40,446 nt of DNA. It comes from Candidatus Melainabacteria bacterium (GTDB lineage Bacteria; Cyanobacteriota; Vampirovibrionia; 2-02-FULL-35-15). Made by a program: the position numbers and the translations under genes. Under the pieces are notes generated by a model. That model was given only the letters and a program-made list of their open reading frames with translations, made no database searches and was not told the origin of the DNA. Every line of letters starts with the position of its first letter. Positions within the stretch are counted from its first letter, which is position 1. Of the stretch, positions 5,864 through 28,922 are shown piece after piece. Location: positions 1 to 40,446 of the forward strand of contig JACOTS010000052.1 in assembly GCA_016178265.1 (NCBI GenBank). The letters run 5' to 3'.

Positions 5864-5894
5864 CCAATCCTCAATCCCATTATAATAGAAATCA

Positions 5895-7649
5895 ATGCTA
5901 ACTCAACTTACCATTTCAAACTTTGCGATAATTGATGAACTAGAAATTAATTTTAATAGTGGTTTGATCGTACTAACAGGTGAAACAGGTGCAGGAAAAT
6001 CAATAATTATAGATGCATTGGATTTTTTATTGGGGGCAAGGGGAAGCTTAGATTTTATAAAAAATGGTACAAGCAAAGCAAAGGTAGAAGGGATTTTTGA
6101 AATTAGTGACAAACTTTCAAGAATCTTACATAATTGGTTTAAAGAAAATGGTTTTGATGAGCTCGATAGTCAAAATCAATTAATAATCTCAAGAGAATTA
6201 TCACAAAATGGCTCTAAAGCAAAAATTAATGGTTCAATTGCTAATCTTTCACATCTTACCTATGTCAGGGAATATATTTTTGATATTCACGAACAAAGCA
6301 GTCATATTGATTTGCTAAAGATTGAAAAGCAAATTGAAATATTTGATTCTTTCGGAGATATTAGCCATCAAAAGCTTTTAAGTAGTTACAGAAATTTATT
6401 TGAAGAATTTACAATCATAAAAAATAGGCTAAACAGTCTTACAGAAAGCTCAGAAGAAATTGCAAAAAAAATGGATTTCTTAAAATTTCAAATAAATGAA
6501 ATAGAAGAAGCAAATATAAGTGATTTAAAAGAAGAAGAAACCTTGCTTGAACAAAGGAAAAAGCTATTAAACAGCAAAGAACTGTATGACAATGCTTCAA
6601 AAATAAATGAGTTAATAAGTGGCGAAAATCCTTATAACCTAACAAAGCTACTTACAGAAATCAAAAAACTAATTGCAAGCTCAAGCTCTTTTGACATATT
6701 GTTTGAGCCTTATAAAGAAGTTATTGAATCTGCTAGTGATAGCATGAAAGATTTATCCTCATTTACATCAAGTTACACAGAAACCATTCAAGAGCCTGGT
6801 GAAAACTTAGATGAAATAGAAGATAGGCTTGATACTTTTTACAGACTAAAGAAAAAATACGGAAATACTCTTAAAGATATAAAAGGATCTTTAGAAAAAA
6901 TGGAAGATGAACTAACAACATATACAGATCCAAGAAAATCTAAAGAAAGTTTAGAAAAGGAATATAAACAAAGAGAAGAAGAGATTAATCTGCTTGCAGA
7001 CAAATTAACCAGATCAAGAGAAAAGCTAGCACAAGAATTTGTAAATAAAGTTAATGAGGAGCTTTTAACTTTAGGATTTAAAAGTAAAAACAGCTCAAGT
7101 AATTTTCCTTTATTTGTAGTTGAGTTCTTAGATTGTCCTTTAAGCAAATGTGGCAAGGAACAAATTCAATTTTTGTTTACAGCAAATCCTGATGAAGAGC
7201 CAAAACCCTTGTTAAAAGTAGCATCTGGTGGTGAGCTTTCCCGAATAATGCTTGCAATTAAGTCACTTGTAGGTTCTTTTGGATTTATAAATACAAAAAC
7301 CATGGTTTTAGATGAAATAGATATTGGGATAAGTGGAGAAATTGCATCTTCTGTAGCAAAAAAATTGTATAAGATTTCAAGAAGCAATCAAGTTATTTGC
7401 ATAACACATCAACCCATTGTTGCAGCAATGGCTGATGAACATTTTGAGGTAATAAAAGAGATAGAAGATGGTACTACTTTTGTCAATATAAGGCAACTAG
7501 CAAATGATGAAAGATGGAATGCCTTAGTTTCACTACTTGCACCAGAGTTAAAATCAAAAGAAATTTCTCATGATGCAAAACAATATGCAAAATCTCTGTT
7601 AGATAATGCAAATAAAATAAAAAACAAAAAAGAAGATGCATTAATATGA
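5895..7649 (+). CDS. recN: DNA repair protein RecN
   Basis: N-terminal Walker A (GETGAGKS), long coiled-coil middle, C-terminal SGGELSRIMLAIK signature and Walker B (LDEID). Confidence 0.9.
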   Translation: MLTQLTISNFAIIDELEINFNSGLIVLTGETGAGKSIIIDALDFLLGARGSLDFIKNGTSKAKVEGIFEISDKLSRILHNWFKENGFDELDSQNQLIISRELSQNGSKAKINGSIANLSHLTYVREYIFDIHEQSSHIDLLKIEKQIEIFDSFGDISHQKLLSSYRNLFEEFTIIKNRLNSLTESSEEIAKKMDFLKFQINEIEEANISDLKEEETLLEQRKKLLNSKELYDNASKINELISGENPYNLTKLLTEIKKLIASSSSFDILFEPYKEVIESASDSMKDLSSFTSSYTETIQEPGENLDEIEDRLDTFYRLKKKYGNTLKDIKGSLEKMEDELTTYTDPRKSKESLEKEYKQREEEINLLADKLTRSREKLAQEFVNKVNEELLTLGFKSKNSSSNFPLFVVEFLDCPLSKCGKEQIQFLFTANPDEEPKPLLKVASGGELSRIMLAIKSLVGSFGFINTKTMVLDEIDIGISGEIASSVAKKLYKISRSNQVICITHQPIVAAMADEHFEVIKEIEDGTTFVNIRQLANDERWNALVSLLAPELKSKEISHDAKQYAKSLLDNANKIKNKKEDALI

Positions 7650-7659
7650 GGGAGGGAAT

Positions 7660-8325
7660 ATGAAAGAGATAAACATTATTTTTTTTGGACCCCCAGGAGC
7701 TGGCAAAGGTACGCAAGCTCAAAAAGTATCTTCTGAAATTAACCTGCCTCATATAGATACTGGCTCTTTAATAAGAGATGCTATTAAAAAAGAATCGACC
7801 TTAGGCAAAAAAGCCAAAGAGTTTGTTGAGTCGGGGAATTTAGTACCTGATGAACTTGTAATTGATCTTATTGGAGAAAAATTATCAACAATTAAAAATG
7901 GCTCATTTAAAGGATTTATCCTCGATGGATTTCCAAGAACTATCCCTCAAGCAGACGCATTAAAAAATCTAATGAAGACAATGAAACTTCACAAGCCAAC
8001 AGTTATAAATGTTCAAGCACCCGATGAAATATTAGTTACAAGGCTAAGTGCAAGAAGACTTTGTTCAAACAAAGCTTGTGGTGCTATTTACAATTTAATT
8101 TCAAAAAAACCAATAGTAGAAGGAAAATGTGATGTTTGCAAATCTGATTTATATCAAAGAAAAGATGATACAAAAGAAGCTTGCACACAAAGACTTAAAG
8201 AGTACTATACAAAAACCGCTCCGCTTGAGGAATATTATAGAAAGCAAGAATTGCTTATAAATGTTGATGGTACAAAGGGTTCAGCCGAAGTATATAAACA
8301 AATAATTAATGAGCTAGAAATTTAA
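7660..8325 (+). CDS. adk: adenylate kinase (zinc-lid type)
   Basis: GPPGAGKGTQ P-loop and a Cys4 lid (CSNKACG...CDVCKS). RBS GGAGGG upstream. Confidence 0.95.
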   Translation: MKEINIIFFGPPGAGKGTQAQKVSSEINLPHIDTGSLIRDAIKKESTLGKKAKEFVESGNLVPDELVIDLIGEKLSTIKNGSFKGFILDGFPRTIPQADALKNLMKTMKLHKPTVINVQAPDEILVTRLSARRLCSNKACGAIYNLISKKPIVEGKCDVCKSDLYQRKDDTKEACTQRLKEYYTKTAPLEEYYRKQELLINVDGTKGSAEVYKQIINELEI

Positions 8326-8351
8326 AATGCAACATTTGCTATTATTAATGC

Positions 8352-9146
8352 ATGCCAATAACTATTTATGAAAAAGATCAATTTGAATTAATAAAAAAAG
8401 CAGGTAGACTTGCCGGGGAAGCAAGAGACCTTGCATGTAAACTAGCTAAACCAGGTACCAGTACATGGGCAATTGATCAAGAAGTAGAAAAATGGATTAG
8501 GGATCAAGGTGCAATACCTACCTTTAAAGGATATATGGGGTTCCCGGGTTCTGTATGCGTATCAATCAATCATGAGGTGGTTCATGGTATCCCAAATAAA
8601 AACAGAATATTAACAGAAGGGGATATAGTTAGTTTTGATGTAGGTGTTACTGTAAAAGAAAAGTTCAATGGGAGTGAGTGGAATTATATTGGGGATACAG
8701 CACGAACTGTGCCGGTAGGAGAAATAACCCCTCAAATACAAAAGTTGCTTGAGGCAACAAACACTGCTCTTTTTAAAGGTATTGAAGTATGTAAAAGCGG
8801 TAACACAATAAAAAATATTTCTGAAGCTGTTTGCAATATTGCAAAAAAAGACAACTTTGGAATAGTAAGAATGTTTGGTGGGCATGGGGTAGGCACAAAT
8901 TATCATGAAGAACCTTTTATACCTAACTGGCCTGAATATTTCATGCAAACACCAGATACTGATATTAAAACAGGGATGCTTCTTTGCATTGAACCAATGT
9001 TCAACCTAGGATCAGATGATGTGAGAAAGCTTAAAGATAACTGGACAATTGTCACTGCAGACCATAAGCTGTCAGCACACTTTGAACATACTATATTGAT
9101 AACAGAAGAAGGGCCATGTATCACAACTAAAACTAAGGAAAATTAG
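8352..9146 (+). CDS. map: methionine aminopeptidase type I
   Basis: Pita-bread fold motifs (VCVSINHEVVHGIP, FDVG, GHGVG, EPM, EHT). Confidence 0.95.
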   Translation: MPITIYEKDQFELIKKAGRLAGEARDLACKLAKPGTSTWAIDQEVEKWIRDQGAIPTFKGYMGFPGSVCVSINHEVVHGIPNKNRILTEGDIVSFDVGVTVKEKFNGSEWNYIGDTARTVPVGEITPQIQKLLEATNTALFKGIEVCKSGNTIKNISEAVCNIAKKDNFGIVRMFGGHGVGTNYHEEPFIPNWPEYFMQTPDTDIKTGMLLCIEPMFNLGSDDVRKLKDNWTIVTADHKLSAHFEHTILITEEGPCITTKTKEN

Positions 9147-9151
9147 ACTAT

Positions 9152-9160
9152 TGGTATAAT
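9152..9160 (+). promoter_or_regulatory. extended -10 promoter candidate (TGGTATAAT) for infA
   Basis: Perfect TGnTATAAT at 9152-9160, just after the map stop. The preferred infA ATG (9168) is only 8 nt downstream, so the transcript would be leaderless or nearly so. Confidence 0.35.
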
Positions 9161-9167
9161 GTTATCC

Positions 9168-9425
9168 ATGCCAAAAGATACTATTGAATTTGAAGGAGTG
9201 ATAAAAGAATCATTACCCAATGCAATGTTTAGAGTAGCACTTGACAATGGGCATTTAGTATTAGCACATGTATCTGGAAAAATAAGGAAACACTTTATTA
9301 AAATACTACCTGGAGATAGGGTAAAAGTAGAGCTTACTCCTTACGATTTAAATAGAGGTAGAATAATTTACCGTGTTCAAGAAAAAAGAAGGGGAGCCGG
9401 GTTATCAGAAGAAAATGAGAATTAG
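9168..9425 (+). CDS. infA: translation initiation factor IF-1 with a ~13-aa C-terminal extension
   Basis: [11 protein letters not shown]...MFRV...[14 protein letters not shown]...[14 protein letters not shown] is classic IF-1. The track start at 9159 is in frame 9 nt upstream. The tail [14 protein letters not shown] runs into repeat-like DNA. Confidence 0.9.
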
Positions 9426-9430
9426 AGGTC

Positions 9431-9651
9431 GCAAAACAATTTGTAGGATTTGTCCAATTTACTTGGCAAATCCGGTAAGGCGAAAATAAGGAAGGAACGA
9501 GCCGAGTGTTCGCACGAGACGAGCAAAATAAAGTGAGGAAAGACAAGGATAAAATCGGAGAAGAAAAAATAAGCTTTTTGTGTGATTCATTCACCAAAAA
9601 GCGTCGAGAAAGGGGAGCGAGCTGAGCATTCGTGCGAAGCGAGCGGTAAAA
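9431..9651 (+). repeat. structured repeat cassette, two tandem type-1 units
   Basis: Unit 1: hairpin H 9446-9473, GA hairpin S 9495-9526. Unit 2: H 9573-9602, S 9615-9646, then TAAAA and the rpmJ ATG. The reverse complement closely matches 14250-14398 and 12468-12550. Confidence 0.9.
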
Positions 9652-9765
9652 ATGAAACACAGAGCATCAGTAAAAAAATTATGTGCAAAGTGCAAAATTA
9701 TAAGACGCAAAGGCCGGGTAGTGGTTATTTGCGAAAATCCTAAGCACAAGCAAAAACAGCATTAA
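9652..9765 (+). CDS. rpmJ: 50S ribosomal protein L36 (not in the ORF track; 37 aa)
   Basis: Manual translation gives [37 protein letters not shown], the L36 zinc-ribbon pattern, in the canonical position after infA. Confidence 0.9.
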
Positions 9766-9779
9766 CGATTTTAGATTTT

Positions 9780-10553
9780 ATGTCTAAATTAAAATTGCTT
9801 TCTTGGAATGTAAACGGCATAAGAGCTTCTCATAAAAAAGGCTTTTTGAATTGGTTAGAAAAAGAAAAGCCTGATATTCTTTGTGTTCAGGAAACAAAAG
9901 CGCAAGAGGAACAATTAACCAGTGAACTTCTTAGCCCTAATTGCTATAAAACATATTGGTCAAGTGCAGAAAAAAAAGGATATAGCGGAGTTGCAACTTA
10001 TACAAAAATTGAACCAAAAGAAGTAAAAAAAGGTCTTGGCATTAAAAGATTAGATAATGAAGGTAGAACTTTAATTTCAGACTTTGGTGATTTTATTTTA
10101 TACAACATTTATTTCCCAAATGGGCAAAGAAGTCAGGAGAGACTTGATTTTAAGCTGGATTTTTACAATGAGTTTTTAAAACAAGTAAACAAGCTCAAAG
10201 ATAAAGGTAAAAAAATTATAGTTTGCGGTGATGTAAACACAGCACATACAGAGATTGACTTAGCAAGGCCCAGAGAAAATAAAGATACTAGTGGGTTTCT
10301 GCCTGTTGAAAGAAGCTGGATGGATAAGTTTTTTTCATATGGTTATATAGATACTTTCAGGCATTTTTGTAAAGAGGGCGGGCATTATACATACTGGGAT
10401 CCAGTTACAAGAGCCCGTGAAAGAAATGTTGGGTGGAGAATAGACTACTTTTTTATTACTCCAAATCTTTTAAAGAGCCTAAAAAAAGCATTTATTCTCT
10501 CTGATGTAATGGGATCAGATCACTGTCCTCTTGGAATTGAATTAGAACTTTAA
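9780..10553 (+). CDS. xth: exodeoxyribonuclease III (AP endonuclease)
   Basis: WNVNGIRA...CVQETK...GDVNTAH...SDHCP motifs of the ExoIII/EEP family. Confidence 0.9.
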   Translation: MSKLKLLSWNVNGIRASHKKGFLNWLEKEKPDILCVQETKAQEEQLTSELLSPNCYKTYWSSAEKKGYSGVATYTKIEPKEVKKGLGIKRLDNEGRTLISDFGDFILYNIYFPNGQRSQERLDFKLDFYNEFLKQVNKLKDKGKKIIVCGDVNTAHTEIDLARPRENKDTSGFLPVERSWMDKFFSYGYIDTFRHFCKEGGHYTYWDPVTRARERNVGWRIDYFFITPNLLKSLKKAFILSDVMGSDHCPLGIELEL

Positions 10554-10963
10554 TTTAAAGATACTGGCGCAGTAAACAGTGAGTGATTTCTCTCACGCTC
10601 TTCTTGTATACGACTTCTAACAAAAAATGGATTTCCATATGCCAGTGCTGCTTGTGTAGCAATTACACCTTCTCTTACAGGGGTTGGCATTCTGGATGCA
10701 GGGTCTATTATTTCGTTAGCTTGAGTAACTGTACCAAAGTTTGTTCCATGAATATCATCATGTGTAGGAGTATTAGCTATTCTGCTAAATCCAATATGTA
10801 CTGGAATTGAATTTCTTTGAGCAATATTTACATGTGAAGAGGTTATGGCTTGAGGCCTAGTATTGTTAAAAGGATATCTTTGAACTGGTTGAACTCTTTC
10901 TTGTTGAGCAAGAGCTCTTAAGTCATTTATTCTTGTATTTGGAAATCCAACCGGTGCTATCAA
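10550..10963 (-). CDS. hypothetical protein (137 aa)
   Basis: TTG start at 10963 with GAGGAG 8 nt upstream. No family recognised. Converges on xth with a 4-nt overlap. Confidence 0.45.
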   Translation of the reverse strand: MIAPVGFPNTRINDLRALAQQERVQPVQRYPFNNTRPQAITSSHVNIAQRNSIPVHIGFSRIANTPTHDDIHGTNFGTVTQANEIIDPASRMPTPVREGVIATQAALAYGNPFFVRSRIQEERERNHSLFTAPVSLN

Positions 10964-11090
10964 TGTACTATCTCCTCAATAGGAAAATTGTCTTATACAT
11001 AGGACATTTAGTCAAGTGATTGACCCTCAAACTGTGTAAAAAAGTTTATTTAACCTATGTTTAAACTTAATTTAACCAAGTTTTAACCAA

Positions 11091-12467
11091 TTACTTCAGC
11101 ACATTCACCATATCCACGACGGTTTTTTTGGCATCTCCAAATATCATCATGGTTTTTGGCAGATAAAACAATTCATTTTCAATTCCTGCAAATCCTGCTG
11201 CCATTGATCTTTTTAGAAAAATAATTGTTTTTGCTTTATCTACATCTAATATAGGCATTCCATAGATTGGGCTTCCTGGATTATTTTTTGCTGCAGGATT
11301 TGTAACATCATTTGCACCAACAACAAGTGCCACATCAGCTCTTTCAAATTCTGTGTTAATTTGATCCATTTCATAAAGTTTTTCATAAGGCACATTTGCT
11401 TCAGCAAGAAGAACATTCATATGGCCTGGCATACGTCCTGCAACTGGATGGATTGCATATTTTACTTCAACTCCTTTGGCTTCAAGCATATCAGCAAGTT
11501 CTCTTAAATTATGCTGTGCTTGAGCAACTGCAAGTCCATACCCAGGAACAATTATTACTTCATTTGCATTTTCAAGCACGATCTGTGCATCATCTACAGA
11601 ATATCCTTGAACTGATTTTGCTTTTCCATTGGTTGCAGCTGTTGCAGAAGCTTCAACTTTTCCAAATGCACCAAACATAACATTAGTCAGGGACCTATTC
11701 ATTGCTTTGCACATAATTCTAGTTAGTATCATTCCTGATGCACCAACAAGTGCCCCTGTTACAATTAGCGCATAATTTGAGAGTGCAAAACCAGCAGCAC
11801 ATGCAGCCATTCCTGAATATGAGTTTAAAAGTGCTACAACAACAGGCATATCTGCTCCGCCTATCGGAAGCACAAGAAAAATTCCAAGTGAAAATGAAAT
11901 AGCACATATTACCCCTGCCCATAAAATGTGTTCAGGATGCATAAAAAGAAAAATTGCACCTGTTACAATCACAAAAAACTGAAGCAGATTTAATGTTTTT
12001 TGAAATGGATATGTAACTGGTTGTCCTGTAACAATTCCCTGAAGCTTTCCATACGCTACAAGACTTCCGGAAAAAGTAATAAGTCCTATGACTAAAGTAA
12101 TTAAAATTGTAGATATTTCATAAAGAGTTGGAGTTGGATAAAGCCTTACATACTCAGATACAACTACAAGTGCTGAAGCAAGACCTCCATAGCCATTAAG
12201 AAGCCCAACCATTTGAGGCATCTCTGTCATTTTGACTGTTACTGCAAGAAACGCTCCGATAGCTGAACCAAGTATAATTCCAATTATTATAAGCTGATAA
12301 TTTATTACATTTCTCTCAAATAAAGTTGCACAGATTGCAATTAACATTCCAAATGCTGAAAGAAAATTTCCATTTCTTGCAGTCTTTGGATGACTAAGCA
12401 TTTTTAAACCAAGAATAAATAAAACTGCTGAAATTAAGTATGATATGTAAATTATGTTCTCTCGCAT
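11091..12467 (-). CDS. pntB: NAD(P) transhydrogenase subunit beta
   Basis: Multi-TM N-terminus and a C-terminal dIII NADP(H) domain (VPGYGLAVAQAQH...HPVAGRMPGHMNVLLAEA...GANDVTNPAA). Confidence 0.95.
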   Translation of the reverse strand: MRENIIYISYLISAVLFILGLKMLSHPKTARNGNFLSAFGMLIAICATLFERNVINYQLIIIGIILGSAIGAFLAVTVKMTEMPQMVGLLNGYGGLASALVVVSEYVRLYPTPTLYEISTILITLVIGLITFSGSLVAYGKLQGIVTGQPVTYPFQKTLNLLQFFVIVTGAIFLFMHPEHILWAGVICAISFSLGIFLVLPIGGADMPVVVALLNSYSGMAACAAGFALSNYALIVTGALVGASGMILTRIMCKAMNRSLTNVMFGAFGKVEASATAATNGKAKSVQGYSVDDAQIVLENANEVIIVPGYGLAVAQAQHNLRELADMLEAKGVEVKYAIHPVAGRMPGHMNVLLAEANVPYEKLYEMDQINTEFERADVALVVGANDVTNPAAKNNPGSPIYGMPILDVDKAKTIIFLKRSMAAGFAGIENELFYLPKTMMIFGDAKKTVVDMVNVLK

Positions 12468-12595
12468 TTTTTAATACCGCTCGTTTCGCGCTAACGCTCA
12501 ACTCGCTTTTTTCCTCCAGCGCTTTTTGGTGAATGAATCACACAAAAAGCTTATCTCTCCTTTTTCCCTAGTTTCTATCTCTTACCTCTTATCTC
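12468..12595 (-). repeat. structured repeat cassette, type 1, fills the pntAB-pntB spacer
   Basis: In RNA (minus) orientation: heptads 12573-12600, H 12521-12550, GGAGG (revcomp of 12513-12517), S 12477-12506, UAUUAAAAA, then the pntB AUG (12467). Confidence 0.9.
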
Positions 12596-12880
12596 TTATT
12601 TCTTCTTAAACATCTTAAGCATACGATCAGTTACTGTATATCCACCAACTACATTTATTGTTGCAAAAACTATTGCTACACACCCAAGAACAGTAGCTAA
12701 GTTTGTTTCCCCATATCCTGCAGATAGAAGTGCACCAACAACCGAGATGCCAGAAATTGCATTGGAACCTGACATAAGAGGAGTATGCAATGTAGGTGGA
12801 ACCTTGGTAATAACTTCAAACCCAACAAAAATTGCAAGTACAAGAATATAAAGTGTAATTAAAAATTCTCCAAATATCAT
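12596..12880 (-). CDS. pntAB: NAD(P) transhydrogenase subunit alpha part 2 (membrane part)
   Basis: 94-aa hydrophobic protein with HTPLMSGSNAISGI, the typical split alpha2 subunit, between pntAA and pntB. Confidence 0.9.
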   Translation of the reverse strand: MIFGEFLITLYILVLAIFVGFEVITKVPPTLHTPLMSGSNAISGISVVGALLSAGYGETNLATVLGCVAIVFATINVVGGYTVTDRMLKMFKKK

Positions 12881-13091
12881 TTTAATATCGCTCGTTTCGC
12901 ACGAATGCTCAACTCGCTTTTCCTTCCCGGCGACTTTTGCCGAGTAAATCGGACAAAAGTCTTAGGTTTTTTCTGATTCCTATTTCCTAATTCCTATCTC
13001 CTTATTTTATACCGCTCGCCTCTTCGCTTTTACCTTTTTCTTTTCCCATTTTCCCTGATTCCTATCTCCTAGCTCCTATTTCCTATCTTTT
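12881..13091 (-). repeat. structured repeat cassette, type 1 plus a partial second unit, fills the pntAA-pntAB spacer
   Basis: S 12888-12917, H 12932-12961, heptads (TCCTAnn)x4 at 12978-13005, a partial ACCGCTCGCC unit at 13011-13030, and heptads x4 at 13060-13087. The pntAB AUG (12880) follows GAGCGAUAUUAAA. Confidence 0.9.
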
Positions 13092-14249
13092 TTAATGCAC
13101 CTTTGCAAGTAAATGTTTAATGTCTTCTTTTAATACTACCCCCTGATGAGTAATAAGCGCACCTTTTATAATCTCATCATTTAAATCTAAATTTAGCAAT
13201 TTATCTTTTACGAGAAGCGAAATCACACTTTCCATGTTTTTTGAAAACATTTGGCTTGCATGCATTGGCATAGAAGATGGCAAATTAATTGGACCACAAA
13301 TCTTTACACCGTTTTTTATTACATCTTTTCCAAGTTCAGTAAGTTCACAATTCCCTCCCATATCAGCTGCCAAATCAACAATTACAGAGCCTGGTTGCAT
13401 GCCCAACACGGCTTTTTCACTAATTAAAACCGGTGCTCTTTTCCCTGGAATTTGTGCTGTAGTTATAACCACATCAAATCTTTTTATCTGCTCTGCCATA
13501 AACTCTAGTTCTCTTTTGTGGCTATCGCTGGAAAGCTGTTTTGCATATCCGCCTTCCCCTTCTGTTTTTTCTCCCTTTAAATCAAAAGAAACAAACCTTG
13601 CTCCTAAGCTTTCTATTTGTTCTTTTACTACAGGTCTTGTATCAAAAGCTTCTACAACAGCACCTAGTCTTCTTGCTGTTGCTATTGCTTGAAGCCCGGC
13701 AACACCAGCTCCAATTACAAATACTTTTGCAGGTGCAATGGTACCTGCTGCAGTCATAAACATTGGAAAAAACTTAGGCAAATTAGCTGCTGCAATTAAA
13801 ACCGCTTTATAGCCTGCTATTGTACTCATAGCACTTAAGACATCCATACTCTGTGCTCTTGTAATCCTTGGAATACTGTCAAGAGAGAAAGCTGATATTT
13901 TTCTAGAAACAAGTCTTTGTATCCCGTCCACATTAGTTGCTGGTTGAAGCAAAGAAACTAAGCAACTCCCTTCTTTCATCATATTAATTTCATACTCGTC
14001 AGCTTTTTCGTTAAACTCTGGTTTATTGATTTTCATTACCAGATCTGCCGATGCAAATAGTTCCATTGGACTTTTAACAATTTCTGCACCTGCTTCTTTA
14101 TAATTTTCATCAAAAAAGTATGCGGCTTGCCCGGCATTTTGTTCAATTAATACCTGAATACCCTTGCTAGTGATTTTCTTTACGCTTTGAGGAATTAGCG
14201 CAACCCTTGTTTCATTTTGAATGATTTCTTTTGGGATACCGAGTTTCAT
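13092..14249 (-). CDS. pntAA: NAD(P) transhydrogenase subunit alpha part 1 (dI, NAD(H)-binding)
   Basis: MKLGIPKE..NETRVA start, alanine-dehydrogenase/PNT fold and the Rossmann motif VIGAGVAGLQA. Confidence 0.95.
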   Translation of the reverse strand: MKLGIPKEIIQNETRVALIPQSVKKITSKGIQVLIEQNAGQAAYFFDENYKEAGAEIVKSPMELFASADLVMKINKPEFNEKADEYEINMMKEGSCLVSLLQPATNVDGIQRLVSRKISAFSLDSIPRITRAQSMDVLSAMSTIAGYKAVLIAAANLPKFFPMFMTAAGTIAPAKVFVIGAGVAGLQAIATARRLGAVVEAFDTRPVVKEQIESLGARFVSFDLKGEKTEGEGGYAKQLSSDSHKRELEFMAEQIKRFDVVITTAQIPGKRAPVLISEKAVLGMQPGSVIVDLAADMGGNCELTELGKDVIKNGVKICGPINLPSSMPMHASQMFSKNMESVISLLVKDKLLNLDLNDEIIKGALITHQGVVLKEDIKHLLAKVH

Positions 14250-14420
14250 CTTTTACCGCTCGCTTCGCACGAATGCTCAGCTCGCTCCTTATTTTCGACG
14301 CTTTTTGGTGAGTGAATCACACAAAAAGCTTATTTCCTACTTTTCTACTTTATCGGATTTGCTGGATAAACCAGACAAATCCTACAAATTGTTTTATGCT
14401 CTGATCTTCTTCTGATTCCT
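14250..14420 (-). repeat. structured repeat cassette (type 1) forming the pntAA 5' leader
   Basis: S 14256-14285 (same core as 9617-9646), H 14300-14329, a second H 14355-14382, the shared TACAAATTGTTTT edge, and a pyrimidine tail up to 14420. GAGCGGUAAAAG precedes the pntAA AUG. Confidence 0.9.
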
Positions 14421-14424
14421 CTTC

Positions 14425-14452
14425 ATTATAAATTTAATCATAAACATTGTAA
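14425..14452 (-). promoter_or_regulatory. sigma70-like promoter candidate for the pnt operon
   Basis: On the minus strand: TTACAA (14452-14447), 16-nt spacer, TATAAT (14430-14425). The cassette at 14250-14420 would then be transcribed as leader. Confidence 0.4.
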
Positions 14453-14483
14453 AAGTATTGTTATTTTGAAAATTAACTTATAG

Positions 14484-14622
14484 GATAACTGCTCACCTAA
14501 TAGAAGCAATCTTGTGGGTGACACCGGAAGGGAGGGGGTCCATGAGCAAGGTACGTAGCTCATGGAGGGTGACCTGTAGGTGGCAGGACCCACTAAGTTA
14601 TAGCTAGCAAGGTGAGCAGTTA
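14484..14622. other. 139-nt long imperfect hairpin (candidate structured RNA or MITE-like element), class unknown
   Basis: A perfect 13-bp closing stem ATAACTGCTCACC/GGTGAGCAGTTAT. Inner stems CTTGTGGG/CCCAC(T)AAG and CCATGAGC/GCTCATGG. GC-rich core. A partial third copy of the arm (GGTAACTACTCACC) sits at 14756-14769. Confidence 0.35.
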
Positions 14623-14635
14623 TAAAAGGAACTTT

Positions 14636-14659
14636 TGTACATTCGTACAAGTCTATAAA
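14636..14659 (+). promoter_or_regulatory. palindrome TGTAC-ATTC-GTACA (LexA-box-like) next to a TATAAA -10 candidate
   Basis: Perfect inverted half-sites at 14636-14649, 4 nt upstream of TATAAA (14654-14659) and about 270 nt upstream of lexA. It resembles the GTAC-N4-GTWC LexA box type reported for cyanobacteria (from memory). Confidence 0.3.
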
Positions 14660-14806
14660 ACTGGTCAAGCAAGTGGTAGCTAGCAGCTTACCCAATAATC
14701 TTGCATTTTTACTCCTCAAATACTTAAAACGCTAGCTACCGACCATTAAATTATGGGTAACTACTCACCATCTATAAAATGACCACTATAGCAATTTATC
14801 AGGAAA

Positions 14807-14921
14807 GGTTTTGTCCGACTTGTTCGGCAAAACCTGGACATCGTGGTAAGAAGCAAATATCTAGTGCACTCTGGAAAGGTGGCGAGCAAGTTATGAGCGA
14901 GCCACCTGAGTAAAAACAATT
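14807..14921 (+). repeat. structured repeat cassette, type 2 (long variant), lexA leader
   Basis: H 14807-14834 (GGUUUUG-U-CCGA-CUUGU-UCGG-CAAAACC), a middle block shared with 20338-20379, and S-like 14878-14906 (GGTGGCGAGCAAGTTATGAGCGAGCCACC). TGAGTAAAAACAATT then leads to the lexA ATG. Confidence 0.8.
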
Positions 14922-15503
14922 ATGGCAACAGAACTTACAGAAAACCAAACCGGATTTTTAAACGGGCTTAAAAAGCAATACAGAAAAACCCCGCTTCCAT
15001 CCATAAGACAAATAGCAGAAGATCTTGGTTTTAAATATCACAATTCTGTTCAACACTATCTTGAAATATTAATGTTTCAAGGCATTATTAAAAAAATCGA
15101 TGATTTTTTATATCTAGATAAAAATTTGTTTGGTTTAAAGATCTTTGATTCCAGGGTACCTGCAGGGCTTCCTGCTCAAAGCGATGATAGCTATGAAGTT
15201 TTTGATTTTGATGAATTCATGAACATTGATAATGAGAGAGGATTTATGCTTAGGGTCTCCGGAGATTCTATGATAGACGCTGGAATACATGATGGTGATT
15301 TAATTACAGTAGATACAAAAATCAGGCCCACACATGGGCTTATAGTTGTTGCAATAGTAGATGGTGGTTATACAGTTAAGTACTTACGCAAAAAAGGAAA
15401 TAAATATTATTTAAAAGCAGCTAACCCAAAATATAATGATATTCACCCAGAGCATGAGTTTAAGGTGGTTGGTGTGGTAACCGGTTCTATCCGTAAATTT
15501 TAG
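14922..15503 (+). CDS. lexA: LexA repressor
   Basis: N-terminal winged HTH, an Ala-Gly cleavage site (VPAGLPA), and the S24 peptidase Ser (SGDSM) and Lys (TVKYL). Confidence 0.9.
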   Translation: MATELTENQTGFLNGLKKQYRKTPLPSIRQIAEDLGFKYHNSVQHYLEILMFQGIIKKIDDFLYLDKNLFGLKIFDSRVPAGLPAQSDDSYEVFDFDEFMNIDNERGFMLRVSGDSMIDAGIHDGDLITVDTKIRPTHGLIVVAIVDGGYTVKYLRKKGNKYYLKAANPKYNDIHPEHEFKVVGVVTGSIRKF

Positions 15504-15601
15504 GAATAAATTAGGGCTATCCTCGTTTATCTAATAAAAGCAGGTATTAACCCTTAACCTTCCATAATGTACACTTAACTGCAATATGCGAAAGTTCTCC
15601 T

Positions 15602-16372
15602 ATGAATATTGAGAACACAATTAAAATTTTAGCTATAAGTTTGATACTAACTGTATCTTTCCCAAATTCATCTTACGCATTATCAGATAATCCTATTTTT
15701 GTTGAAATTTCAACTCAGTGGTGTGGTGCATGCAAAATGCTTGAACCAACTGTTGAACAGCTTAAAGGAGAATATGGAGGAAAAGTTACTTTTCTTAAGT
15801 TAGATGCAACAAATGAAGAAACAGTACTTGCATCTGTTGCAATAGCTGAACAATACGGTGTTTCTGAGTTCTTTTTAAATAATAGAGATGCATTCCCACG
15901 AATTGGAATATTTTGCAGTACAAGTGCAACTCCTGATCACAACTTACTTGGTGCACTTAGCATAGATTCATTTAGAGCAATCTTAAATGGTCTTGCTCTT
16001 GAAGGGGGGGTATGCAGTTTATCTGACTCTGGATCCCCAAAACAAGCCGATCTTGGTCCAGGAAGACCAGGTGAAGCAGAATATGAAGAAGTGCTTGGCG
16101 GAAGACCAGATATACCTTTACTATCTGACAGACCAAAGCTTCCTGTAATTTCAGGAAGACCACCAGAATTATCCTTCTGGCAAGCAGGAGGTCCCATCCC
16201 TTTCTATGCATATTTTCAATTTTGGGTTTTACCAGAATGCACAGGTGATATTAATGTTATTTGCAGCAACTTCGGATTAGAAGAAAACAAAGATGAGGTT
16301 CCTACTTTTAAACCATGGAATCCAAATACAACTAGAAATGAAAAAGAATTTAACGGATTAAAGAAAGGATAA
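15602..16372 (+). CDS. secreted thioredoxin-like protein with a C-terminal GRP-repeat extension
   Basis: Signal peptide, a WCGAC redox motif in a thioredoxin-like context, then four (G/D)RP-containing repeats 9-13 aa apart and a Trp/Phe-rich tail. Confidence 0.65.
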   Translation: MNIENTIKILAISLILTVSFPNSSYALSDNPIFVEISTQWCGACKMLEPTVEQLKGEYGGKVTFLKLDATNEETVLASVAIAEQYGVSEFFLNNRDAFPRIGIFCSTSATPDHNLLGALSIDSFRAILNGLALEGGVCSLSDSGSPKQADLGPGRPGEAEYEEVLGGRPDIPLLSDRPKLPVISGRPPELSFWQAGGPIPFYAYFQFWVLPECTGDINVICSNFGLEENKDEVPTFKPWNPNTTRNEKEFNGLKKG

Positions 16373-16376
16373 TTAC

Positions 16377-16673
16377 ATGCTTAGATTATTTACAACATTA
16401 TCAATTGCTATCTTACTAAGCATAGGACATGTGCAAGCAGAAGAAATTGTTGAAAACAATTTACCATTATTTGTTACCATCACTGCTAAATGGTGTACAA
16501 GTTGTCAAAGTTTAAAACCAATAGTTGAAGAACTAGTGCCGATTGTTGGTGTATTTTGTGGTGCTAAAGACACGGCTATCAAAGAGTTTCAAGCACAAAC
16601 AGAAAAAGGGATTTATCAAGCATACCTAGACAATTTAGTAATTAACGGCACTCAGATTTGTAGTTTAAAATAA
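16377..16673 (+). CDS. secreted thioredoxin-like paralogue with an internal deletion
   Basis: Signal peptide and a WCTSC motif. It aligns to the upstream paralogue but lacks about 45 residues of the fold after VEEL. Starts 4 nt after the previous stop. Confidence 0.45.
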   Translation: MLRLFTTLSIAILLSIGHVQAEEIVENNLPLFVTITAKWCTSCQSLKPIVEELVPIVGVFCGAKDTAIKEFQAQTEKGIYQAYLDNLVINGTQICSLK

Positions 16674-16681
16674 AGAGAATA

Positions 16682-16714
16682 AAAAAAACGACCTCTAGTG
16701 CAGGTCGTTTTTTA
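16682..16714. terminator. bidirectional rho-independent terminator
   Basis: A-run, CGACCT (16689-16694), 7-nt loop, AGGTCG (16702-16707), T-run. It sits between convergent genes. Confidence 0.75.
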
Positions 16715-16744
16715 AAGTTCTATTCAATTAGTGCAGGCAAAATA

Positions 16745-17047
16745 TTACTTGCAGTGTTTTGCAACAAGCTTGGTCATTTCAAACATATTGACTTTGCTTC
16801 TTCCATTGAACACCAGCTTCAATGCTGCATCAGCATTAATATTTCTCCTGTTTTTTGCATCTTGCAAACCTTTTTTCTTTATGTAAGCCCAGATCCTCTT
16901 TGTGATTTCTGTTCTTGGAATTGGTTTGCTACCTACTACTTCAGCTAGTGCCTTATCTGGCTGTAGCGGTTTCATAAATGCTTTATTTGGTGTCCTTGCA
17001 CCTTTTTTCTTTGCTGTACTCTTTGATTTAGATTTCTTTGTAGCCAT
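16745..17047 (-). CDS. SWIB/MDM2 domain protein with a basic N-terminal tail
   Basis: Lys-rich tail, then LQPDKALAEVVGSKPIPRTEITKRIWAYIKKKGLQD...MFEMTKLV, the typical SWIB domain. RBS GGAG. Confidence 0.8.
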   Translation of the reverse strand: MATKKSKSKSTAKKKGARTPNKAFMKPLQPDKALAEVVGSKPIPRTEITKRIWAYIKKKGLQDAKNRRNINADAALKLVFNGRSKVNMFEMTKLVAKHCK

Positions 17048-17197
17048 AATATTTTTTTCTCCTCTCTTATATTCTGGTTACTGCCAACCACATTATACAC
17101 GGAGTCATCCTATAGCTGGCAATCTAGTACATAGAAGATAGCACATATTTACTTCTTGTTCTAGTCTACATGAATACACTGTGACCAGTATTTTCAT

Positions 17198-17231
17198 AGA
17201 GAAACAAGGGGCTTTCTTATAGAAAACCCCT
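17198..17231 (-). terminator. candidate rho-independent terminator after the Cys-rich protein gene
   Basis: Minus strand: AGGGG-U-UUUC, loop UAUAA, GAAA-G-CCCCU, followed by UGUUUCUCU. Confidence 0.4.
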
Positions 17232-17306
17232 CTGAAAATCACTATTTTGTCACTGAAACTCTATTTCTATCTATTGCTCTTACGCAGTAATCAAACTCTG
17301 TCTTAC

Positions 17307-17663
17307 CTAATTAACTGCCATGTCCCAAATACAAGAGCACTCATGCTCTTTTACATTTTCATACCTTGTGCTTCTACCTGGACATTTTTCATCTTTTTCT
17401 ACGTCTAAATTAGCATCTGGACAACTATCAGCACACCACTTTGCTTCCATTTCTGGGCACTCATCTTCATATGCTCTTTCTTGACCTGTTGCACTAAGCT
17501 CCCGACCATTTCCTGCTGAATCCTCTGTTGTCCAGTGTGCATTACACTTACAAAACCCTAAGGGGTCATTTAAAGCATGATGTGCCTTAGCCTCACTAGT
17601 AGAAAACCACACAAAAGTAATAAAAACTATGGTAAATATAACAAAAAGTATCCTTGGCATCAT
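17307..17663 (-). CDS. small secreted Cys-rich hypothetical protein
   Basis: Signal peptide (…STSEA/KA), multiple Cys in CxC and CxxxC spacings, acidic. No family recognised. Confidence 0.5.
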   Translation of the reverse strand: MMPRILFVIFTIVFITFVWFSTSEAKAHHALNDPLGFCKCNAHWTTEDSAGNGRELSATGQERAYEDECPEMEAKWCADSCPDANLDVEKDEKCPGRSTRYENVKEHECSCIWDMAVN

Positions 17664-17934
17664 ATTTTCACATATACCCCATAGTGAAAAATATTACACT
17701 AGAAAGTTCATAAATTTCCTTTCATCTATATGATCTATCCATGAGTTTACTAACTAATAAGAGCTATATTGACGATTAAAAAATTTAAAGAAAACCACTC
17801 AAAATTCACACTAATTCAGCTTTTTCCTATAAGTTTAGAAACTTTTAAGGTTATCCCTATCTGAATTTAACCAAGATTTAAACATACCTCTGTAAATTTT
17901 CCTCAATAAAGAGAAAAAGTCATTTGGAGATTAT

Positions 17935-18387
17935 ATGCCCCGTAATCCTTTCCTAACTGTAGCGCTAAATGGCAGAAGATTTGATCTGCAAGAGAAGCGA
18001 AGTTATAGAACTCTTCTTATGAGTGAGCTTTCAGAAGTAGCATTTCTTAGAAATTTCATAAATACATGGGCAAATAGCAGCTACCAGGCAGCAGTAGACT
18101 CGCTTCCAGATGATGATCCAGCAACCACAGACGTAAATGAAAGTGTATCAGTAGATGATATTAAAGAGCTTGCAGGTAAACTTTTTGGATCAGGTTTTGA
18201 TTTTCCTGATAGTGATGGAGAAGCTGATGCTATTCAAGAATGGTTAGAAGAAAACAAGCAAATGGTTAAAGAAAGAATTTTTACCATTTATGGAAAAGTA
18301 AGAGCAATGGATATGGATATAGGTGGTATTGAAACTGATATTAAAAATTTAGAAGCTATACAGAAAAATGACGGTAAGGAAATATAA
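17935..18387 (+). CDS. hypothetical acidic protein (150 aa)
   Basis: Track ORF with coding-like composition. No family recognised. Confidence 0.45.
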   Translation: MPRNPFLTVALNGRRFDLQEKRSYRTLLMSELSEVAFLRNFINTWANSSYQAAVDSLPDDDPATTDVNESVSVDDIKELAGKLFGSGFDFPDSDGEADAIQEWLEENKQMVKERIFTIYGKVRAMDMDIGGIETDIKNLEAIQKNDGKEI

Positions 18388-18489
18388 AGTACTAATAAAT
18401 CTCTCTATATTTACCATTTAATTAGAATTTCGACTTATAAACATTGTAAAATATAACTTTGTTTGGTCATTTATAAGCTAGGTATTTCA

Positions 18490-19818
18490 TTGATTAAAAG
18501 ATATACACGCCCCATATTTGAAAAGCTTTGGTCAGAGGAGAATAAGTATGCGATCTGGCTTGAAGTAGAGCTTGCTGCATGTGAAGCAAGTGCAGAATTT
18601 GATCAAATCCCTCAAGAAGCTATTAAAAAAATTAAGGAAAAAGCCAAAATCAATATAAAACGAATTGAGGAATTAGACACAGAAGTTCATCATGATGTAA
18701 TAGCATTTTTAAGCAGTCTTACTGAACAAATTGGAAATGAGGGAAGATTCCTGCATCTTGGAATGACAAGCTCAGATTTGATTGATACCGCTTTTGCAAT
18801 TTTACTTAGAGATGCCGGAAAAGAAATATTAAAAGGGCTTGATCTTCTACTTGAAGCATTTAAGACAAAAGCAATTGAACATAAAAATATAATTTGTATA
18901 GGAAGAACACATGGGGTTCATGCTGAACCAACTACTTTTGGACTAAAACTGCTTAATTTTTATGAGGATTTAAAGAGAGTAAAAGAAAGATTTGAAAAAT
19001 CAACAGATGATATTAGTGTAGGTATGTTTTCTGGTGCTGTAGGCACTTATGCAAACTTTGACCCTAAGATTGAAGAGATAGCGCTTAAAAAACTAGGACT
19101 AAAGCCTGTGCCAATATCTACACAAGTAATAAGCAGAGAAAGGCATGCAGCTTACATAACAAATCTGGCACTAATTGCATCAGTTATTGAAAAAATAGCT
19201 ACTGAGTTAAGACACTTGCAAAGAACCGAAGTATTGGAAGTAGAAGAACCTTTCTATAAAGGCCAAAAAGGCTCTTCTGCAATGCCACATAAAAGAAATC
19301 CTTGGAAGCTAGAAAACTTATGTGGGCTAGCAAGATTAGTAAGATCTTATGCAATATCTTCTATGGAAAATGTAACTCTTTGGCATGAAAGAGATATAAG
19401 CCACAGCTCAGTTGAAAGGATTATTTTCCCTGATTCAACTACACTTGTTGATTTTATGGTTCACAGACTATATGAAATAATTTCAAAACTAAATATTTAT
19501 CCTGAAAATATGAAAGAAAATATGTTTAGATTTGGCGGGGTGGTTTTTTCCCAAACGGTTTTACTAAAACTGGTTGAAAAAGGATTAGAGCGAGAAAATG
19601 CATATAAGCTTATCCAGGACAATGCGCTAGCTGCATGGAATAAGAAAGATGGTAATTTTAAGCAAAATATACTTACTGACAGTAAGATCACCAATATATT
19701 GTCTAAAGAAGAAATAAACGACTGTTTTAACCCTGAAAAGCACCTTAAAAACATAGATTCAATATTTAATAGGGTCCTTAACGTTGAATCTAAAAAAGAA
19801 AAATCCCTTGCACTTTAA
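18490..19818 (+). CDS. purB: adenylosuccinate lyase
   Basis: (M)IKRYTRPIFEKLWSEENKY matches the canonical PurB N-terminus. SSAMPHKRNP signature. The in-frame TTG at 18490 is preferred over the track TTG at 18463. Confidence 0.9.
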   Translation: MIKRYTRPIFEKLWSEENKYAIWLEVELAACEASAEFDQIPQEAIKKIKEKAKINIKRIEELDTEVHHDVIAFLSSLTEQIGNEGRFLHLGMTSSDLIDTAFAILLRDAGKEILKGLDLLLEAFKTKAIEHKNIICIGRTHGVHAEPTTFGLKLLNFYEDLKRVKERFEKSTDDISVGMFSGAVGTYANFDPKIEEIALKKLGLKPVPISTQVISRERHAAYITNLALIASVIEKIATELRHLQRTEVLEVEEPFYKGQKGSSAMPHKRNPWKLENLCGLARLVRSYAISSMENVTLWHERDISHSSVERIIFPDSTTLVDFMVHRLYEIISKLNIYPENMKENMFRFGGVVFSQTVLLKLVEKGLERENAYKLIQDNALAAWNKKDGNFKQNILTDSKITNILSKEEINDCFNPEKHLKNIDSIFNRVLNVESKKEKSLAL

Positions 19819-19966
19819 TGCAAAGGTTAAATACTTAACCTATAGCTATTTTAGGTAGAAAGTACTATCTTATATATCGTTAAGAGATATAATGAAAAAA
19901 AATTTATCAACCTTTTAGTTTAAATTTGAATTAAGGATTGACAAAGAAGTGGTTAAAAGAATACTA

Positions 19967-20242
19967 ATGGCAAGATTTTTTGATTCAGCAAATGAATCAG
20001 TAAAAAGATCAAACTATAGCTCAGACATTCTAGAAGCCTTTGATCTTATCCAAGCAATTTCTTGTTACAGATACTTCCCAACTGTTGACGAATGCATTAA
20101 AGCATTTCCAAACCTTGAACAAGAAAAACATAAGGTTGAGTATATATGGGAGCAGTTTAAAGGTTTATCAAACGAACAACTAAGTGACATTTTCATCTCA
20201 TCACTAAGCAAGATTGATGTATCAAATGCAATAACTAATTAA
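19967..20242 (+). CDS. hypothetical protein (about 91 aa)
   Basis: Track ORF 19949..20242, with the first ATG at 19967. No family recognised. Confidence 0.35.
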   Translation: MARFFDSANESVKRSNYSSDILEAFDLIQAISCYRYFPTVDECIKAFPNLEQEKHKVEYIWEQFKGLSNEQLSDIFISSLSKIDVSNAITN

Positions 20243-20305
20243 TATCCCTTTGTTTTTGTTACTGCCTACCTAACACTAGAAGTTCCAACTAAACTACTAC
20301 AAGGT

Positions 20306-20420
20306 AAGATTTTATCCGATTTATTCGGTAAAATCTTGATAGCAATGCTAAGAAGTACATAATATGTGCACTTTGCAAAACCGGCGCAGCTCATTCGTGA
20401 GCAAGCCGGTGGTAGGCAAA
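20306..20420 (+). repeat. structured repeat cassette, type 2 (long variant)
   Basis: H 20306-20337 (AAGAUUUUA-U-CCGA-UUUAU-UCGG-UAAAAUCUU), a middle block homologous to 14835-14877, and S 20380-20410 (ACCGG..GCTCA-TTCG-TGAGC..CCGGT). Followed by GGTAGGCAAAAA. Confidence 0.8.
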
Positions 20421-20511
20421 AATATCCCTTTATTACGCCTAATTCTACATATTTAGTGATTATCTAATAAAAAGAAACTCAAGTAAATTTTTTACCGTCT
20501 TACTTTAAGTT

Positions 20512-28865: not shown

Positions 28866-28922
28866 CTACCTAAAAGGGGCTTATTAATAGACCACGCTAT
28901 AATAAATCTTGCTAGTCTTATC

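Follow-up and report, generated by a model that had tools for sequence, protein, structure and literature searches.

Hairpin H is a small imperfect stem-loop that occurs eight times in a 40,446-nucleotide stretch of DNA from Candidatus Melainabacteria (assembly GCA_016178265.1, contig JACOTS010000052.1), here called the window. A preliminary description covered all eight; the focal copy, at 12932-12961, lies in the pnt operon. H does not stand alone. It is the 5' stem-loop of a modular unit of ~90 nt, in which an A/purine-rich arm is followed by H, a purine linker of ~15 nt (for example, GUCGAAAAUAAGGAG), a second hairpin containing tandem G.A pairs (the GA hairpin), and an A-rich tail of the GGTATAAA or GGUAUAAA type. 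The reading preferred here, to which a probability of roughly 55% is given, is that H belongs to a lineage-specific, mobile, intergenic repeat whose units, when they face an open reading frame (ORF), would serve as leaders with a split Shine-Dalgarno (SD) sequence. Here, the SD-like motif would lie on one side of the GA hairpin and the start codon on the other.

The starting point is the structure of H itself. The stems, bulges and loops of the eight copies, when re-read from the window, are all exactly as first described; the focal copy reads, on the minus strand, GACUUUUG-U-CCGA-UUUAC-UCGG-CAAAAGUC. The inner stems of the eight are CCAA/UUGG, GUGA/UCAC, CCGA/UCGG and CUGG/CCAG. The 5' ends of the copies start with GCUUUUUG, GGAUUUG or AGAUUUUA. 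A scan that specifies only architecture (an outer stem of at least 6 bp, a 1-nt 5' bulge, a 4-bp inner stem, and a 5-nt loop) returns the same eight copies from the window, and its remaining matches lack the UUUG/CAAA signature. In 525 kb made up of the window and related loci, this architecture is found 97 times, compared with 0-3 times in shuffled sequence. This frequency is far above chance. When folded by RNAfold, six of the eight window copies (14355-14382 among them) present H in both the minimum free energy (MFE) structure and the centroid structure; the hairpin at 9446-9473 was not recovered in its RNAfold fold.

Compensatory changes in the stems, which had been claimed from the window's copies, are borne out by two larger sets. 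The first holds 45 unique copies chosen partly by their complementarity. Here, 95.2% of cells are paired, all 12 of the 12 pairs have changed on both sides, none of 500 shuffles reaches the observed values, and slid controls are only 31-52% paired. For the second set, the anchors were just the GA hairpin and a sequence mask blind to pairing and to the variable positions; H sits 15-19 nt upstream of the GA hairpin in 122 of 143 distinct contexts. In its 48 unique copies, 97.7% of cells are paired and 9 of 11 pairs are doubly changed, and again 0 of 500 shuffles score as high. Because the stems covary, it is the folded single strand of H that is supported as the thing maintained. Selection on structure and not on sequence, as the preliminary description had put it, is nevertheless too strong a wording, since the bulged U, the UUYAY loop, the A-U pair that closes it, and the U3/A3 tracts show 90-100% invariance.

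The covariation might also have arisen without any selected function. An inert palindrome carried by a selfish repeat might look compensated if quasipalindrome template switching or gene conversion operated among subfamily copies. The recurring stem variants do form a limited set, and exchange between sites of near-identical strains involves whole unit variants, not single pairs. However, neither the bulged U nor the asymmetric loop should survive correction by template switching, and both of these are nearly invariant. Further, the subfamilies must have diverged while 95-98% pairing held, and within copies packaged in miniature inverted-repeat transposable elements (MITEs), H is less variable than the neighboring positions of the flanking arm. 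A hairpin with no function is therefore held to be highly unlikely.

An alternative pairing of the loop and 3' arm of H with the downstream spacer, which is the MFE fold in locus L023, was rejected; the spacer and the inner stem do not covary across copies. In ~14 units that keep the same GA hairpin, the place of H is taken by another hairpin, H' (GCAAAAAAUGUUCU-RGUGAA-GAAUAUUUUUUGC and covarying variants), as in L092:2330-2390, L105, L116, L121, L124, L158, L080, L165 and others.

The GA hairpin is a box of 27-28 nt, CGAGYUGAGCAUUCGUGCGAARCGAGCG, followed by a short A-rich tail (GGUAAAA, GAUAUUAAA) and then by AUG. It folds into a 12-position helix in which three Watson-Crick blocks are parted by two tandem G.A pairs, with UUCG or UUAG as the cap. 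In the copies before lexA and ORF 20512, the spacer is longer and the second hairpin is different, still with a GAGC...GCGA core. The patterns used to search for GA hairpins tolerated mismatches at four pairs. In 154 distinct contexts, these pairs are occupied only by the combinations U-A/C-G or A-U/G-C, one C.A excepted, and there is hardly any variation in the G.A pairs. The GA hairpin before pntAA, in flanking DNA that is ~97% identical between the window and its sister contig L071, shows compensated differences at three pairs.

This second hairpin also bears on the strand. Its tandem G.A pairs form only on the sense strand, the other strand having C.U mismatches, and folding is ~2 kcal/mol more favorable in sense than in antisense. 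This argues for one functional strand and against cruciform DNA, which had been offered beside RNA as the possible seat of selection and is now unlikely.

The distribution of the units is restricted. An exact-pattern scan for the GA hairpin in one genome per species (185,579 species) gave 72 matches in 70 loci, all in five Candidatus Melainabacteria metagenome-assembled genomes (MAGs) from groundwater. A looser pattern applied to metagenome contigs gave 89 further loci, many from the sample that holds L071, which is 96.6-98.7% identical to positions 7660-15884 of the window. The gene order around pnt is common to the window and a Melainabacteria MAG. The 154 distinct GA-hairpin contexts come from ~1 Mb of loci, and the window contributes 8 copies of H. 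The family is thus shown to be dispersed and to be restricted to a groundwater Melainabacteria lineage.

Within this lineage, the units keep close company with genes. Among 94 distinct contexts without terminal inverted repeats, the unit end at which a gene boundary is met is always that of the GA hairpin. In 28 of these, 7-15 nt separate the GA hairpin from an ORF start, and in 8 others the distance is 17-30 nt. A tRNA gene lies 8-18 nt away in 27, of which 9 share the strand of the tRNA and adjoin its 5' end, and 18 are antisense to it and adjoin its 3' end; in about 8, the stop codon of a convergent ORF adjoins the hairpin end. The window itself comes from a bacterial chromosome and has its genes in the order adk-map-infA-rpmJ-xth / pntB-pntAB-pntAA / lexA, and all eight of its H copies are intergenic and sense to the downstream gene (rpmJ, pntAA, pntAB, pntB, lexA, or ORF 20512).

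The linker varies with these surroundings. If an SD-like motif is defined as GGAG, GAGG, AGGA or GGGA at most 13 nt from the foot of the GA hairpin, 25 of the 28 ORF-start copies have one, compared with 5 of 26 tRNA copies (Fisher p = 2.5e-7). In the population to which the window belongs, the corresponding figures are 20/22 and 3/9 (p = 0.003). SD sequences are used at other genes of the organism. With the GA hairpin looped out, the SD-like motif stands 7-11 nt from the AUG. Thus, 25 of the 28 ORF-adjacent copies have the layout of a split ribosome-binding site, with an SD-like motif 5' of the hairpin and AUG 7-15 nt past it. The presence of the motif at ORF-facing copies suggests a leader in which SD, hairpin and AUG follow one another.

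Such an arrangement has a precedent. In T4 genes 38 and 25, the SD lies upstream of a hairpin that loops out, shortening the SD-AUG distance from 22 to 5 nt and from 27 to 11 nt, as shown experimentally (PMC3014915). The H unit is similar in having its SD-like motif at the upstream side of the hairpin and the AUG close past it (7-11 nt). The T4 sites, however, are single, fixed and proven, whereas the H unit is a predicted case, carried on a repeated mobile cassette before dozens of genes.

The following course of events may then be proposed. The elements would land in A/T-rich nucleotides beside genes. A unit that faces an ORF would become its 5' leader or intercistronic spacer, co-transcribed with the ORF. 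In the transcript, H and the GA hairpin would fold locally and independently, bracketing the purine linker and leaving it single-stranded. The SD-like motif would lie at the 5' foot of the GA hairpin and the AUG 7-11 nt beyond its 3' foot, so that looping out of the hairpin would restore a workable SD-AUG distance. An element that inserts after the SD of a gene and before its start codon might thereby be tolerated, or even be useful. The structure of H would presumably be kept because H, as the upstream bracket, insulates the exposed linker from upstream sequence.

The invariant bulged U and UUYAY loop suggest that H may also have a putative protein partner. This idea can be carried further. 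H, the tandem-G.A hairpin, or both might be an operator bound by an RNA-binding protein (L7Ae/YbxF-like or phage-coat-like, for example), in which case mobile spread would have placed dozens of genes under one post-transcriptional control. Variable stems with invariant unpaired nucleotides are, indeed, a typical signature of hairpins recognized by proteins. Tandem sheared G.A pairs are common protein-binding motifs, and the copies precede many unrelated genes. Yet the binder is putative; units are missing at orthologous sites in close relatives; many copies lie antisense beside tRNAs or stop codons; and ~14 units have H' in place of H. An operator of this kind is quite unlikely.

Termination was also weighed. 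On its antisense face, H resembles a factor-independent terminator, with a 12-bp stem followed by UUAUUU, and might end the transcripts of tRNAs and other genes or block antisense read-through. At least 5 U are found in the 8 nt after the stem in 94 of 157 distinct copies when read antisense, compared with 3 of 157 when read sense; further, the antisense face is downstream of the gene in 18 of the 27 tRNA-adjacent copies and in the ~8 copies adjacent to stop codons. The sense-strand counts, together with the location of every window copy 5' of a gene, led to rejection of a sense-strand intrinsic terminator. As to the antisense version, all eight window copies face the opposite way, inside a 5' leader or operon. 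The antisense U-tail is no richer at the 3' ends of genes than at ORF starts (4.75 vs 4.92 U), and it is therefore an element constant, untuned to context. Moreover, the tail is interrupted (UUAU), the conserved bulge and loop are not features of terminators, the hairpin lies 60-75 nt beyond the end of the gene, and a terminator scan of 9100-21000 did not list these hairpins. A role as terminator or insulator is very unlikely.

Nor does the unit appear to carry a promoter. A sigma-70 promoter inside it was considered, as -35-like TTGACA or TTGGTA and -10-like TATAAA are present; the spacings of 19-31 nt and the 0-4 nt to the AUG or tRNA 5' end do not fit, and a promoter scan found fewer sites than in shuffles. 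Elsewhere in the window, the consensus TATAAT stands 6-9 nt before the ATG of three genes (1768-1782, 5881-5897, 32738-32754(-)), which suggests leaderless mRNAs beside the SD-led genes.

Several considerations weigh against the split-SD reading. About one third of the units without inverted repeats have a tRNA gene or a stop codon for a neighbor, often in antisense, and a role in ribosome binding would be meaningless there. Overall, orientation with respect to co-directional genes is only mildly biased, with 29 sense and 15 antisense. The enrichment of SD-like motifs could reflect the history of subfamilies instead of selection at each site. The units are not kept at orthologous sites in more distant relatives, which makes them dispensable for those genes, and the reading does not account for the movement of the units without inverted repeats. 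Departures from pairing in H, with 6 G.U against 5 A.C, turned out to be uninformative as a pointer to the strand that folds. Last, the RNA-level role of the unit is one that we infer from sequence and from predicted folds.

The family is mobile. Terminal inverted repeats (GTTACTRCCTAGC ... GGTAGGTAGAAAC) accompany 57 of the 154 contexts, as well as the window copies 14757-14917 and 20252-20423; the focal copy and five other window copies are without them. In 29 of 42 copies with inverted repeats, at least 7 of 8 bp are identical between the two flanks. In MAGs nzgw190 and nzgw193, the core of H and GA hairpin lies within elements of ~122 nt with the ends GTTACTGCCTAGC ... GGTAGGTAGAAAC; a second MITE class, of ~165 nt, has the same kind of ends, an H of the AGAUUUUA type, and a different second hairpin. 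All of these units are short (90-172 nt), non-coding, and dispersed in many copies.

Comparison with close relatives shows filled and empty sites. At the lexA ATG, the window has a 169-nt insertion (the 161-nt element and one 8-bp duplicate), and the L071 site is uninterrupted; insertion thus took place at the start codon of lexA, and the ATG was duplicated by it. It is therefore shown that some members with terminal inverted repeats transpose with 8-bp target duplications. Units without the repeats also come and go. A segment of ~135 nt before rpmJ, with a class A unit, is missing in L071, where the GA hairpin corresponding to 9498-9524 survives only as a remnant. The GACUUUUG...CCGA unit is in the pntAA/pntAB spacer in the window, but in the pntAB/pntB spacer in L071. 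Such units are thus shown to be gained, lost and exchanged between 97%-identical strains; the comparison of window and L071 gave no target duplication for them. In the distant relatives L072 and L073/74, the pnt spacers are 46-54 nt long and contain neither H nor GA hairpin. Because the units are unstable between close relatives and absent from these spacers, they are not ancient conserved leaders of these genes.

A bias of MITE insertion towards start codons was tried as an explanation of the location and rejected, since only 6 of 51 MITE right ends lie at most 8 nt from an ORF start. It is therefore the units lacking inverted repeats that are tightly coupled to start codons. A -10-like TAGCTATAAT in the left arm of the MITE was likewise set aside, as it is not conserved across copies. 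No autonomous insertion sequence (IS) with the same inverted repeats was found in the window and L001-L070 (~0.5 Mb), where unpaired repeat matches were partial MITEs or chance.

Mobility leads one to ask whether the structures are kept for the DNA instead of for the RNA. IS200/IS605 elements and the PATE derived from them have strand-specific, subterminal hairpins with an extrahelical base and a conserved loop, and have neither inverted repeats nor target duplications. H and the GA hairpin might similarly be end structures read on single-stranded DNA by an enzyme of the HUH/Y1 type (as in IS200/IS605-derived PATE, or REP/RAYT), with structure kept for mobility and effects on RNA incidental. 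The extrahelical stem base and conserved loop of H resemble the imperfect palindromes of the IS608 type. The polarity of the unit is fixed, and both of its ends have an imperfect hairpin close by; directly 5' of H stands a short conserved TAA; and H, as noted, varies less than the flanking arm of MITE copies. Most units, further, have no terminal inverted repeats or clear target duplication, yet they vary between near-identical strains.

Set directly against PATE, six window units fit in their polarity and in their lack of repeats and duplications, but the constant 5' flank amounts only to TAA and the left arm varies. On the left, units without inverted repeats are, in fact, bounded by a variable purine tract with no defined end. 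Members of the family that do have defined ends carry inverted repeats and 8-bp duplications, unlike IS200/IS605/PATE, which points to DDE-type cut-and-paste. Neither a Y1, RAYT or other transposase gene was seen among the window ORFs looked at or beside any copy, nor was a defined cleavage or target tetranucleotide found. An SD-like linker that depends on context would not be predicted. Thus, the resemblance in the hairpins is a lead only, and selection at the level of DNA is unlikely.

A bolder version of the split-SD reading joins the two lines of thought. Here, H, the SD-like linker, the GA hairpin and the A-tail would be a self-contained mobile cassette for gene boundaries. As a split ribosome-binding site made portable, it homes to the few nucleotides beside ORF starts and tRNA ends, spreads without inverted repeats (by an A-tract-targeted, HUH-type or retro-type route), and is also packaged into MITEs. 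The retro-type route is entertained because the variable A-run tail abuts T-runs. This version is doubtful. If it were true, dozens of housekeeping genes in one lineage would be translated from the leaders of mobile elements.

The preliminary description had allowed that the hairpin might match a known family, such as the terminal structure of a MITE. In part this proved apt, as the copies at 14807-14834 and 20306-20337 are inside MITEs. The hairpin is, however, internal to them, and no family in Rfam or the searched literature corresponds to it. At the gathering score, the only Rfam 15 matches in the window were two tRNAs; at E<=10, nothing credible appeared on 9400-15000 of the window or on the four-unit array of locus L001. 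A literature search found no paper on MITEs or repeats of Melainabacteria. As it is absent from Rfam and the searched literature, the H family does not count as a known MITE; its best place is among the bacterial MITEs and small repeats, as a member not yet described.

The nearest comparison in that class is with Correia/NEMIS of Neisseria, which are MITEs with inverted repeats, target duplications, and co-transcribed stable stem-loops proposed to act on mRNA (PMC2229807). Like the H family, these are non-coding dispersed repeats of 100-170 nt that fall into size classes set apart by an internal segment and are polymorphic for filled and empty sites; their terminal inverted repeats and target duplications have a counterpart in part of the H family. 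The H family, too, sits where co-transcription with neighboring genes would occur, and is predicted to form stable folds. But Correia/NEMIS fold, through their inverted repeats, into one long hairpin cut by RNase III, whereas the H family has two small internal hairpins of fixed polarity. The target duplication is TA in Correia/NEMIS and 8 bp in the H family; most H-family copies in the window's lineage are without inverted repeats; and the two share no sequence similarity.

In its modular build, the H family recalls BOX elements, whose architecture is boxA-boxB-boxC. ERIC/IRU and BOX/RUP are also intergenic and transcribed, and ERIC has orientation-dependent effects on the expression of flanking genes (PMC2229807). 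Host phyla, sequences and folds differ from those of the H family, however, and systematic siting 7-15 nt ahead of a start codon or 8-18 nt away from a tRNA gene, as in the H family, is not reported for them.

REP/BIME, like the H family, are short extragenic imperfect palindromes, found singly or in arrays. They are mobilized by RAYT, and here the window ORFs looked at offer no such gene. The GTAG/CGTC head of REP is not found in H, which has the starts given above. Arrays of the H family run head-to-tail and REPIN pairs are inverted, and part of the H family has inverted repeats and 8-bp duplications. For REP palindromes, roles in mRNA stabilization or termination are hypothesized (PMC3733652). 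Taken together, the behavior of the H family is that of bacterial MITEs and other small dispersed repeats (Correia/NEMIS, ERIC, RUP, REP), and it shares sequence with none of them; it is distinctive in its two small polar internal hairpins, in the majority of copies without inverted repeats in the window's lineage, and in its tight apposition to gene boundaries.

If the role proposed for the split-SD leader is correct, nature would here provide a mobile element that brings along a translation-initiation region both complete and structurally insulated. The case would show how genes can tolerate insertions directly before their start codons, and it would explain why unrelated genes (the pnt operon, rpmJ, lexA, and many others) have look-alike leaders in an uncultured sister lineage of the Cyanobacteria. 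The order of hairpin, exposed SD, tandem-G.A hairpin and AUG would also offer a compact natural design for insulating synthetic ribosome-binding sites. Even if the role is wrong, the hairpins are modules of a repeat, and not a new riboswitch or small RNA, and they account for assembly breaks and for probably spurious ORFs such as 14438-14719. The features of the window are collected in Table 1.

Table 1. Copies of hairpin H in the window, their partner structures, and the elements that contain them (sequences in RNA orientation where hairpins are written out).
Feature	Position	Strand	Remarks
Hairpin H, focal copy	12932..12961	(-)	pntAA>pntAB spacer; GACUUUUG U CCGA UUUAC UCGG CAAAAGUC
GA hairpin, partner of focal H (CGAGUUGAGCAUUCGUGCGAAACGAGC)	12890..12916	(-)	12-position helix, two tandem G.A, UUCG loop; tail GAUAUUAAA, then pntAB AUG at 12880
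Purine linker, H to GA hairpin (GCCGGGAAGGAAAAG)	12917..12931	(-)	SD-like GGAAGGA inside
Purine-rich heptad-like tract (GGAAAUA/GGAGAUA/GGAAUCA) and truncated GA-hairpin remnant (GCGAAGAGGCGAGCGGUAUAAAA)	12962..13091	(-)	rest of pntAA>pntAB spacer
Hairpin H	12521..12550	(-)	pntAB>pntB spacer; GCUUUUUG U GUGA UUCAU UCAC CAAAAAGC
GA hairpin, apical GCG UUAG CGC variant	12479..12505	(-)	tail GGUAUUAAAAA, then pntB AUG at 12467
Hairpin H, class A	14300..14329	(-)	5' leader of pntAA
GA hairpin	14258..14284	(-)	9 nt ahead of pntAA AUG (14249)
Hairpin H, class B	14355..14382	(-)	GGAUUUG U CUGG UUUAU CCAG CAAAUCC; conserved AAAACAAUUUGUA 5' of it
Predicted sigma-70-type promoter, TTTACA-17-TATAAT, 11/12	14425..14453	(-)	consensus match only; upstream of both pntAA-leader hairpins
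Hairpin H, class B	9446..9473	(+)	right behind infA; 5' flank AAAACAAUUUGUA, as at 14355..14382
GA hairpin variant, GUG UUCG CAC apex, one C.A mismatch	9498..9524	(+)	only a remnant in sister contig L071
Hairpin H, class A	9573..9602	(+)	before rpmJ; in ~135-nt segment missing from sister contig L071
GA hairpin	9618..9644	(+)	7 nt ahead of rpmJ AUG (9652)
Hairpin H	14807-14834	(+)	within 161-nt MITE at lexA
161-nt MITE at lexA start codon	14757..14917	(+)	H 14807-14834; GA-type second hairpin 14878-14906; 8-bp duplication AATTATGG (14749-14756, 14918-14925); site empty in L071
Hairpin H	20306-20337	(+)	within 172-nt MITE before ORF 20512
172-nt MITE	20252..20423	(+)	H 20306-20337; second hairpin 20380-20410; ends GTTTTTGTTACTGCCTACC / GGTGGTAGGCAAAAAT; 8-bp duplication ATCCCTTT (20244-20251, 20424-20431)

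The promoter predicted at 14425..14453 would put both hairpins of the pntAA leader in the 5' untranslated region.

Heptad-like A/purine-rich tracts lie upstream of H. In the pnt spacers of the window, the heptads GGAAATA, GGAGATA and GGAATCA fill the available space, and their complement (CTCTGAT repeats) is found at 28920-28950(+), just upstream of tRNA-Arg at 28955. At L072:3940-4000, such a tract is accompanied by a normal SD and no hairpins; the purine tract is therefore separable from the unit of H and GA hairpin. CsrA-type GGA sites and TRAP-type (U/G)AG repeats were considered for these heptads and set aside, because the heptads of L072 have no hairpins with them.

Units also occur in tandem. 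Head-to-tail arrays at L001:2650-3010 and L022:6300-6480 have up to four units of ~88 nt (H, a middle hairpin, and a hairpin with a CUUG loop). The L001 array is directly upstream of a tRNA-Ser gene, and no inverted repeats lie between the units of the arrays. Truncated tRNA fragments directly follow the tail of the GA hairpin in L112 (around 7410, minus strand) and at L157:237-300. These bring to mind the partially duplicated tRNAs that remain after an element has integrated at the end of a tRNA.

Other elements of the window are without H. Degenerate remnants of the same MITE family are at 39113-39195 (-) and 30665-30753 (+). The former, GGCGGTAGGTAGAAAG, stops 1 nt before the ATG of the gene at 37502-39112, with an extended -10-like CTGCTATAAT ~60 nt upstream; the latter, GGTGATAGGTAGAAAC, ends at 30753. 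A MITE-like element of ~139 nt at 14485-14623, GC-rich inside and with inverted repeats (ATAACTGCTCACCT / AGGTGAGCAGTTAT) that are perfect over 14 bp, is missing from L071. The mechanical ORF 14438-14719(-) overlies it and is probably not a gene.

Close by, in the divergent region between lexA and pntAA, is a perfect palindrome at 14635-14650 (TTGTACGAATGTACAA), kept in L071 and with a similar sequence, TTGTACAAACGTACAA, in L072. It looks like a LexA operator of the cyanobacterial type and is a candidate for one. A GTGCAC motif in class C MITEs had been considered as a LexA box; the palindrome, which is outside the MITE, is the better candidate. The MITE at 14757-14917 now stands between this palindrome and the start codon of lexA.

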